Part shown: piece after piece, positions 46,287-47,169 of the stretch
Position numbering within the stretch: position 1 is the first letter of the stretch
How the letters are laid out: each line of letters starts with the position of its first letter
Origin: Centroscyllium fabricii
Taxonomy: Eukaryota
Direction: 5' to 3'
NCBI GenBank assembly: GCA_051313645.2
Contig: JBNRSN020000008.1
Coordinates: 161,324,001 to 161,388,000 of the forward strand
Length of the DNA stretch: 64,000 nucleotides
Program-made: the position numbers and the translations under genes
Notes under the pieces: generated by a model
What the model saw: only the letters and a program-made list of their open reading frames with translations
What the model was told of the DNA's origin: nothing
Databases searched by the model: none

Positions 46287-47169
46287 CAGGTTGTGCACCA
46301 TTAATCCGCCACGGGCGGGACCAGGCCCGTGCCGGGAAATGGAAAAAACCGGGAGAACGAGGTTGGACACTGCGCATGCGCACCAGTCAAAATGGCCGCG
46401 CGCATGCGCGCAGCATTGTTATTGGCTGGCGTGCGCATGCGCAGATCGTCCAATATTGGCCGCCGCGAAGTTTTTTCATGGGCTCAGGCTTTTGTGGCGT
46501 TCCGTTTAGGTTTTAGGGCTGTCGGGCAGCAGTGAAAGGCCGGGCTTGCAGCGGCCGGCCAGCCGGCCGGCGGGCGGGGGGAAAGAGGGTGGCGCGGGTC
46601 GGGTCCAGTAGGTTTGCCATCGCCGGGTTGCTGCTGCTGCCGTGACGGGAGCCCGGACTCGGGCTAACAGCTGTTGACTGTCCGCCTCAGTCAAGGGGCT
46701 CAGCTGCTTGTGCTGAAACCGCAGTCTACTGTTAAACACACTAACCCTCAATTGTAAGAGGTCACACGGCGCCAGGCTGTGGTCCAACGGTTTTAGTTGG
46801 GCTCACGGGCTTTCGGAGCGCCGCTTCTCCGTCAGGTGATGGGGGAGCGGCGCTCCGAAGGCCCGTGATTTCGAGTGGGACTTTTGGTCTACAGCCTGGT
46901 GCTGTGTGGCTTCTTACAATTGTCCATCCCAGTCCAACACCAGCATCTCCACATCATGGCTTCAATTACACAGCTATCGATAAAATAACCGGCGGCCGTT
47001 TTGAATGATCTGCGCATGCGCTCTCCGTTCATTGGCGCATGCGCAGATCATTCGCCGAAGCCGCGATGGCGGCTGCTATCTTGCGCATGCGCAGTGCAGT
47101 CGGGGCAATTTGTGCCGGCAGACTGAAGCTGCCGGCTATTCGGGACACGGATTAACGGTGCTGAACCTG
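46287..47169. mobile_element. Tc1/pogo-type MITE (longer relative of 11855-12379)
   Basis: TIR caggttgtgcacc / ggtgctgaacctg; TA duplication; ends nearly identical to the 11855 copy. Confidence 0.9.
46754..46961. mobile_element. Fold-back Penelope pLTR insertion
   Basis: Two inverted arms homologous to 19014-19098; flanking repeat tcaatt at 46748-53 and 46962-67. Confidence 0.8.

Follow-up and report, generated by a model that had tools for sequence, protein, structure and literature searches.

The window analysed here, a 64,000-nucleotide stretch of the Centroscyllium fabricii genome, contains a non-autonomous DNA transposon (MITE) that carries a fold-back of two 86-nt arms (46749-46922) drawn from the 3' end of a Penelope-like element. 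The features concerned are the following.

46285 to 46286, plus strand: left TA target duplication of the MITE
46287 to 47169, plus strand: internal-deletion form of the MITE that carries the hairpin, a non-autonomous DNA transposon with CAGGTT...AACCTG at its ends
46748 to 46753, plus strand: left copy of the putative hairpin target duplication, reading TCAATT here and TTCAATT in MITE forms without the deletion, called from the repeat only
46749 to 46834, plus strand: left arm, a tailless antisense copy of the Penelope 3' end, with 3-4 T>C and, in the window copy, 12 A>G (consensus of the MITE copies: 13)
46835 to 46836, plus strand: loop of 2 nt, at a near-palindromic TCAGGTGA junction
46837 to 46922, plus strand: right arm, sense Penelope 3' end, with a damaged hammerhead-like core and AATAAA region (11 A>G, 4 T>C)
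46923 to 46961, plus strand: unpaired Penelope tail of 39 nt, free of A>G, of the type outlined in PMC11167929 and PMC8557442
46961 to 46967, plus strand: right copy of the target duplication, TTCAATT
47170 to 47171, plus strand: right TA target duplication of the MITE
18975 to 19641, minus strand: unedited, 5'-truncated family copy used for comparison, with a C-terminal ORF end at 19453-19641

The base of the hairpin stem includes CAATT of the left target duplication, and the TCAGGTGA junction is also present in an unedited fold-back elsewhere in the genome (L070). The hairpin itself is probably a passenger without function.

MITEs of the Tc1/mariner-pogo type duplicate a TA target, bear CAG... 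terminal inverted repeats and lack coding capacity. The window MITE resembles them in all three respects and differs in bearing a captured, edited retroelement hairpin. Both ends were scored in 37 of 40 examined copies, all flanked by TA (with one TGCA variant) and located at different sites; terminal inverted repeats accompanied by TA duplication at dispersed sites assign it to the Tc1/mariner-type MITEs. The preliminary description had implied an insertion specific to the window site, while raising the question of whether other MITE copies carry the same insert. A gapped-motif count instead gave 2,388 MITE copies with the hairpin, and all 30 of the best hairpin matches fetched sit in this same MITE; the hairpin is therefore one founding event that was subsequently amplified as DNA. 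Longer forms of the MITE (L053, L054 and L221) keep the original left junction and a TTCAATT duplication, whereas the window copy has an internal deletion that extends up to the duplication and keeps TCAATT; the TCAATT duplication first proposed therefore holds for this derivative, but not for the original insertion. Apparent re-insertions of Penelope at the left junction of the hairpin in L036, L053 and L054 proved to be such longer forms, the only true insertion being an unedited Penelope fragment that entered the MITE just upstream of the hairpin in L051. Gapped-motif searches returned no match to an empty hairpin site in the MITE (two motifs), no hairpin-free MITE ancestor by which older changes could be polarised, and no unedited parent of the exact focal hairpin. 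Relatives of the MITE without the hairpin region are found in the window at 11853-12389, where the whole region around the insertion is missing, and at 56660-57034; they are rich in TGCGCATGCGCA palindromes. About half of the loci L269-L295 represent a MITE subfamily with a deletion spanning the hairpin centre.

The parent family is abundant, a 30-nt core motif having 103,283 matches (about 100,000 copies), and unedited fold-backs are common in it. In one copy (L073) the ORF end extends to a linked frame of 235 aa, which shares 85% identity with a shark protein that has RVT_1; this places a reverse transcriptase ORF upstream of the 3' end, as in Penelope-like elements. The same copy displays a VVY..YIG motif, possibly that of a GIY-YIG endonuclease, in a part of the protein that has no Pfam or PDB match. 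The family consensus contains CTGATGA...GAAA with a stem, a candidate hammerhead motif, with no Rfam hammerhead match; Rfam scans of both hammerhead places likewise returned no hammerhead, only sub-threshold matches to generic miRNA-like hairpins. Of the two cores, both initially considered destroyed, that of the right arm is indeed wrecked, partly through the fold junction itself, but its left-arm counterpart, on the minus strand, retains both CUGACG and GAAA and lacks a single core A. Penelope/Poseidon-like elements, as described by Frangieh et al. 2024 (PMC11167929) and Craig et al. 2021 (PMC8557442), comprise an inverted 5'-truncated copy and a tail of 30-40 bp. The family examined here has in common with them the inverted truncated copy with a tail at one end, two fixed ends (16 of 19 hairpins end at consensus positions about 1-10 and 37-44) and an AT-rich target; it differs in that the inverted structure appears here as a substrate of editing, edited copies receiving no mention in the available part of PMC11167929. 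Pieces of the ORF end also occur in shark proteins annotated as NOXP20-like, CYP2C, septin 5a, XRCC5 and PPP1R12A isoforms (P0004, P0009, P0010, P0013, P0014), which may represent either exonisation or an annotation artefact. Elsewhere in the window (20434-22137, minus strand) lie open frames resembling reverse transcriptase, RNase H and integrase regions, presumably of Ty3/gypsy type by their motifs.

Measured against the window copy (18975-19106), A>G changes on the plus strand number 12 in the left arm and 11 in the right, reproducing the counts that drew attention to this locus. When the arms of the window copy are aligned with each other, 66 positions form Watson-Crick pairs, 16 G·T, none A·C and 4 other combinations, the 16:0 imbalance of G·T over A·C being highly significant (p=3e-5). 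Changes were polarised by a consensus of 29 non-MITE family copies picked by a tail motif (213 matches, of which the first 30 were fetched and one MITE copy was excluded), with which the consensus of 30 MITE-borne hairpin copies was compared. The left arm of the latter has 13 A>G, 4 T>C and 2 other changes, and the right arm 11, 4 and 2, respectively; in total A>G accounts for 24 of 36 changes, alongside 8 T>C and 4 others, and 24 of the 51 arm adenines have turned to G. The unpaired tail, described earlier as free of A>G, has no true change at its 10 As; the one scored by the script falls at an ill-defined consensus column, where full-length copies share the base of the hairpin. Also in agreement with the earlier account, all eight T>C changes lie opposite an A>G (8/24 changed As, compared with 0/27 unchanged As; p=0.001). 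A single C>T was found in the focal arms, and they hold no APOBEC-type cluster of G>A or C>T. A symmetric A>G/T>C spectrum, or an A>G bias extending into the flanking MITE, had been named as evidence against editing; the spectrum is asymmetric against the family consensus, and comparison among MITE copies (G>A 115, C>T 95, A>G 49, T>C 34) reveals no such bias.

Two mundane sources of this spectrum may be weighed at this point. Were a GC-richer subfamily of Penelope, or a pair of subfamilies, the source of the arms, the changes would be ordinary divergence, and the eight compensated positions do look like shared ancestral differences. Divergence, however, cannot put the A>G changes of both arms on one and the same strand. 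The parental state is A/T in all 29 tail-matched non-MITE copies, no free copy with the compensated states occurs among them, and none is found among the 30 fetched of 102 matches to a 'compensated-only' motif, all 30 being MITE-borne; we consider this origin extremely improbable. Palindromes are prone to misreading by long-read methods, and an artefact of sequencing or assembly could be entertained on that general ground. The hairpin is nevertheless present in its 2,388 near-identical copies, unedited fold-backs of the same shape were assembled cleanly, and the changed arms are covered by short-read contigs from a run holding Centroscyllium fabricii sequence, which rules out assembly error and leaves artefact with a negligible probability. 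Contigs from runs of two other organisms match the tail and not the edited arms, the absence of a contig being no evidence in itself.

The asymmetry is not confined to the focal hairpin. A scan of the genome for further hairpins of this kind, suggested in the preliminary description, yielded many independent cases with the neighbour preference of ADAR. Motifs forcing two A>G at TA sites on one or the other strand gave 66 and 35 matches, compared with 7 for a matched control motif forcing two C>T, none of which had further C>T in the motif. The 101 matches represent 99 fetched loci, two being the other arm of a fetched locus. Exclusion of 9 MITE copies, 8 copies of the LCoR family treated below, 19 members of flank-sharing clusters, 1 double and 2 poorly aligned loci left a de-duplicated set of 60; one member was kept from each of two flank-sharing clusters, and two excluded members looked unedited. 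Hyper-mutation, defined as at least four unforced A>G in the 85-nt core, was present at 40 of the 60. A converging partner arm accompanies 27 of these 40, while 13 have no partner within about 1 kb. In the partner arms, which the motifs did not select, at least four same-strand A>G occur in 18 of the 27 and at least four T>C in none, and nine are unedited. Across unselected family loci, many of them fold-backs, at least four A>G in the core were found in 0 of 30. When the numbers of motif matches are divided by the probability of editing at both forced positions (7/16 and 2/12), a rough estimate of one edited end per 1,000 Penelope ends results.

In the 18 loci with both arms hyper-mutated, A>G constitutes 364 of 464 changes and is confined to the paired region, having affected 364 of 806 arm As compared with 2 of 113 tail As (p=4e-24). 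The changed fraction varies with the 5' neighbour (T.64, A.58, C.38, G.22; p=3e-16), an order matching the U>A>C>G given for ADAR in PMC10244592 and accordingly counted in favour of ADAR editing; 5'-G depletion at ADAR sites is likewise reported in PMC5625713. The focal copy by itself gives 3/10 changed As after G versus 21/41 after other bases, a difference short of significance (p=0.30). By 3' neighbour the fractions are G.47, T.55, A.47 and C.35; a 3'-G preference, a trait that varies among animals according to PMC5625713, is absent both from these pooled loci and from the LCoR copies (G.33). The both-arm hairpins are regarded as separate insertions because a flanking direct repeat of at least 9 bp (9-14 bp) was found for 11 of 19, compared with 2 of 408 random pairs. 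On the edited strand of these 19, the tail is 5' in nine, 3' in eight and unclear in two.

Several more complex arrangements were encountered in this survey. Penelope-rich clusters with shared flanks (L106-L108, L115, L116, L193, L196, L203-L205 and L212-L215, 14 loci; L099 and L216-L219) have one arm hyper-mutated by A>G and a facing arm that is not, with segmental or tandem amplification. In L130, L132 and L134, insertions of three and four Penelope arms have edited arms that diverge from one another, with the target duplication repeated internally. One locus (L020) appeared T>C-rich by eye, and its arm comparison (G·T 2, A·C 4) gives no clear case.

The stage at which such changes arise is indicated by a family of host-gene retrocopies. 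Eight matches to the A>G motifs had common flanks, and a search with the shared stretch identified 24 loci holding unique flanks. The parent (L233:1-2400; G000:C1044, about 340.897-340.900 Mb) is the last exon and 3' UTR of a gene of LCoR type, as assigned by its HTH_psq domain (PDB 2cob), and its 3' UTR contains a nearly perfect, unedited Penelope fold-back (0/41 As changed). Most of the other loci are variably 5'-truncated and stop where a SINE further downstream has its (CTATGTTT)n tail, at which the retrocopies were primed; a few end earlier. In one copy, seven parent exons spread over about 60 kb are joined, with six introns removed. Intron removal, 5' truncation and a common 3' tail together mark the family as the product of an RNA intermediate. 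When two segmental duplicates and one repeated place are excluded, 21 loci remain, parent included, in which A>G has affected 209 of 599 As in the hairpin, compared with 7/841 upstream, 5/178 in the tail and 18/807 downstream. An edited member served as the query with which these loci were retrieved at the DNA level, and the unique flanks dominate that similarity. In their hairpins the changed fraction again follows the 5' neighbour (T.63, A.53, C.22, G.10), and the set of A>G changes differs from one to the next of about 20 truncated retrocopies. The LCoR family demonstrates that, in this genome, A>G changes arise on RNA before reverse transcription. Target duplications were scored as one weak case in 16, with two retrocopies not scorable. 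The SINE parts of L232, L235 and L237 are also hyper-mutated by A>G (52 of 85 As in L232), and an inverted SINE lies about 3 kb downstream of the parent (L259:1862-2234); retrocopies of edited SINEs may greatly outnumber those of Penelope. A further SINE, upstream in the parent (L233:970-1357), is missing from most copies (L227-L250) and present in L230, which dates its insertion.

These retrocopies bear directly on the proposal that an unedited insertion was changed in place, either because ADAR acted on the DNA strand in an RNA:DNA hybrid or because cDNA made from its own edited transcript recombined with it; both routes are put forward in PMC10209271. Change in place would account for precise Penelope ends without transduced flank and for tails in both orientations. 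It is difficult to reconcile with an LCoR parent that is unedited while its dispersed, spliced copies are edited, and with changes that end at the edge of the intramolecular stem, since an R-loop would span tail and flanks; we judge it improbable. One-strand dominance of A>G, confinement to the duplex and a pooled 5' preference seen in two independent sets are the attributes to be sought in ADAR-edited RNA fixed in DNA, and all are present here. The A>G hairpins of this genome are a well-supported fossil of RNA editing, valuable for their replicates and controls. In the focal case, an RNA intermediate is suggested by the Penelope ends and the duplication, and the hairpin is very probably the reverse-transcribed product of germline dsRNA hyper-edited by ADAR. 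The asymmetric spectrum, the recurrent loci and the LCoR retrocopies all support the view, advanced when the locus was first described, that an ADAR-edited fold-back RNA was reverse transcribed and inserted.

What sets the focal hairpin apart is its compensated sites, which amount to 8/24 there and 6/371 elsewhere (p=1e-7); T>C opposite a changed A elsewhere stands at 6/371 versus 1/402. Its changed sites match those at other edited loci weakly (p=0.066) and those of the LCoR copies not at all (p=0.42), the weak match being in keeping with a mixed history. GC-biased conversion was the alternative originally offered; as a source of all the changes, whether as gene conversion or as repair of mismatches where the two arms of a palindrome meet in DNA, it is compatible with the AT>GC type of 32 of the 36, with the eight sites that are fully G-C, and with several reversions resembling arm-to-arm conversion in one MITE copy (L279). 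Such a process is strand-symmetric, however, and resolves only existing differences; it cannot create 16 G·T with no A·C, a 5' neighbour preference or copy-specific sets of A>G, and none of the 30 unselected loci, rich in fold-backs, has four or more A>G in the core. As the sole cause it is contradicted, and very improbable, yet something similar may explain the eight compensating T>C, and for these alone it is a candidate. Arm-to-arm conversion in a single track was rejected for these eight sites, whose directions alternate and which are adjoined by uncompensated sites. An origin of the T>C changes during the spread of the MITE was likewise rejected: T at 46777 occurs in 9 copies, but in none of 100 listed among the 2,388, and its frequency of about 0.4% fits back-mutation. 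The compensating changes were fixed before the MITE was amplified.

With ADAR editing of RNA as the preferred reading, the following sequence of events may be envisioned. From a family of about 100,000 copies in which fold-backs are common, one fold-back would have been transcribed into an 86-bp duplex, or a sense and an antisense RNA would have paired, and about half of the As converted to inosine. Reverse transcription would have read inosine as G, as it did in the LCoR family, and the edited copy would have entered the MITE with Penelope-type ends and a 7-bp duplication. Eight G·T positions would then have become G-C pairs prior to amplification. Either the minus strand was edited first and the resulting A·C mismatches were closed when editing recurred, or a DNA hairpin was repaired site by site with a GC bias. 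A·C mismatches are preferred by ADAR, according to PMC10244592. Finally the MITE spread the hairpin as DNA to about 2,400 sites. The template may have been a transcript reading through a fold-back already present, or sense and antisense RNAs that had paired and were copied with a template switch. A simple hairpin template does not predict the unedited partner arms (9/27) or the missing partners (13/40), and any model must account for both tail orientations and the nine one-arm cases.

Precedents for individual steps exist in other settings. Inverted repeats edited by ADAR have reportedly given rise to avian retroviral proviruses hypermutated by A>G (Felder et al. 1994; Hajjar and Linial 1995). 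In both systems edited duplex RNA would be reverse-transcribed and then integrated; the proviruses are those of a retrovirus in somatic cells or cell culture, whereas the copies described here are germline, use non-viral Penelope and LINE/SINE routes, and record many independent events. In plant organelles, C-to-U edited RNA is retroprocessed into DNA, which likewise returns editing to the genome via cDNA, but with another enzyme, in another compartment, and by replacing a gene where new copies are made here. A-to-I hyper-editing of inverted-repeat RNA by ADAR is itself well documented, the elephant shark being among the heavily edited species in Porath et al. 2017 (PMC5625713). Hyper-editing as portrayed there and in PMC10244592 shares with our loci dense A>G in long duplexes, depletion of 5' G and the order U>A>C>G; there the changes are in RNA reads only, whereas here they are fixed in genomic DNA and the 3'-G preference is missing. 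DNA-editing fossils of APOBEC in LTR retrotransposons (Knisbacher and Levanon 2016, PMC4866542) similarly consist of a one-strand deaminase cluster in a genomic retroelement copy, polarised by consensus. They are G>A arising on cDNA, as opposed to A>G restricted to duplex regions, and that screen kept G-to-A and filtered against A-to-G. By analogy, edited Penelope hairpins may be viewed as the RNA counterpart of the APOBEC fossils.

Full-text searches of the non-subscription literature listed no paper describing, in the genomes of fish, Penelope copies or processed pseudogenes that had been edited; earlier accounts of genomic A>G clusters may nevertheless exist. Within the available portions of the sources concerned, Zaranek et al. 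2010 (PMC2873906) detected no A>G excess in high-quality human or Xenopus DNA traces, PMC5224506 reported 2.5 kb of L1 RNA expressed in humans to be free of editing, and PMC5974252, PMC3197674 and bioRxiv 2026.07.22.740005 contain nothing on re-inserted edited RNA. Germline write-back of A-to-I editing has been argued mostly from polymorphism statistics (PMC7186786, PMC10209271). The present loci offer direct, countable cases with internal controls, namely an unedited parent gene, spliced retrocopies with distinct edit sets, unedited single-stranded flanks and the preference of the enzyme. Every copy preserves a single germline molecule in its edited state, which makes old editing levels and site preferences measurable from an assembly alone. 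The formation of inverted Penelope copies is also constrained, in that both arms must be in duplex RNA before copying, and RNA editing emerges as a fast mutagen of repeats, missed by screens filtered for G>A.

A bolder synthesis, which we offer tentatively and regard as possible without being probable, is that ADAR editing has been routinely written into the germline by two retrotransposition machines, at about one edited copy per 1,000 Penelope ends, with the LCoR copies as single-molecule records of ancient host-mRNA editing. The focal hairpin would have passed through the cycle twice, once per strand; editing would loosen the duplex and thereby aid its copying and retention, and a DNA transposon would then have amplified the result 2,400-fold. 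One further observation concerns a run from another organism (X1), guessed to be RNA, in which contigs correspond to the A>G-rich arms at window 46749-46890 with 93% likeness, unlike DNA-like runs from two other organisms, a weak hint that edited Penelope RNA may occur in a relative.
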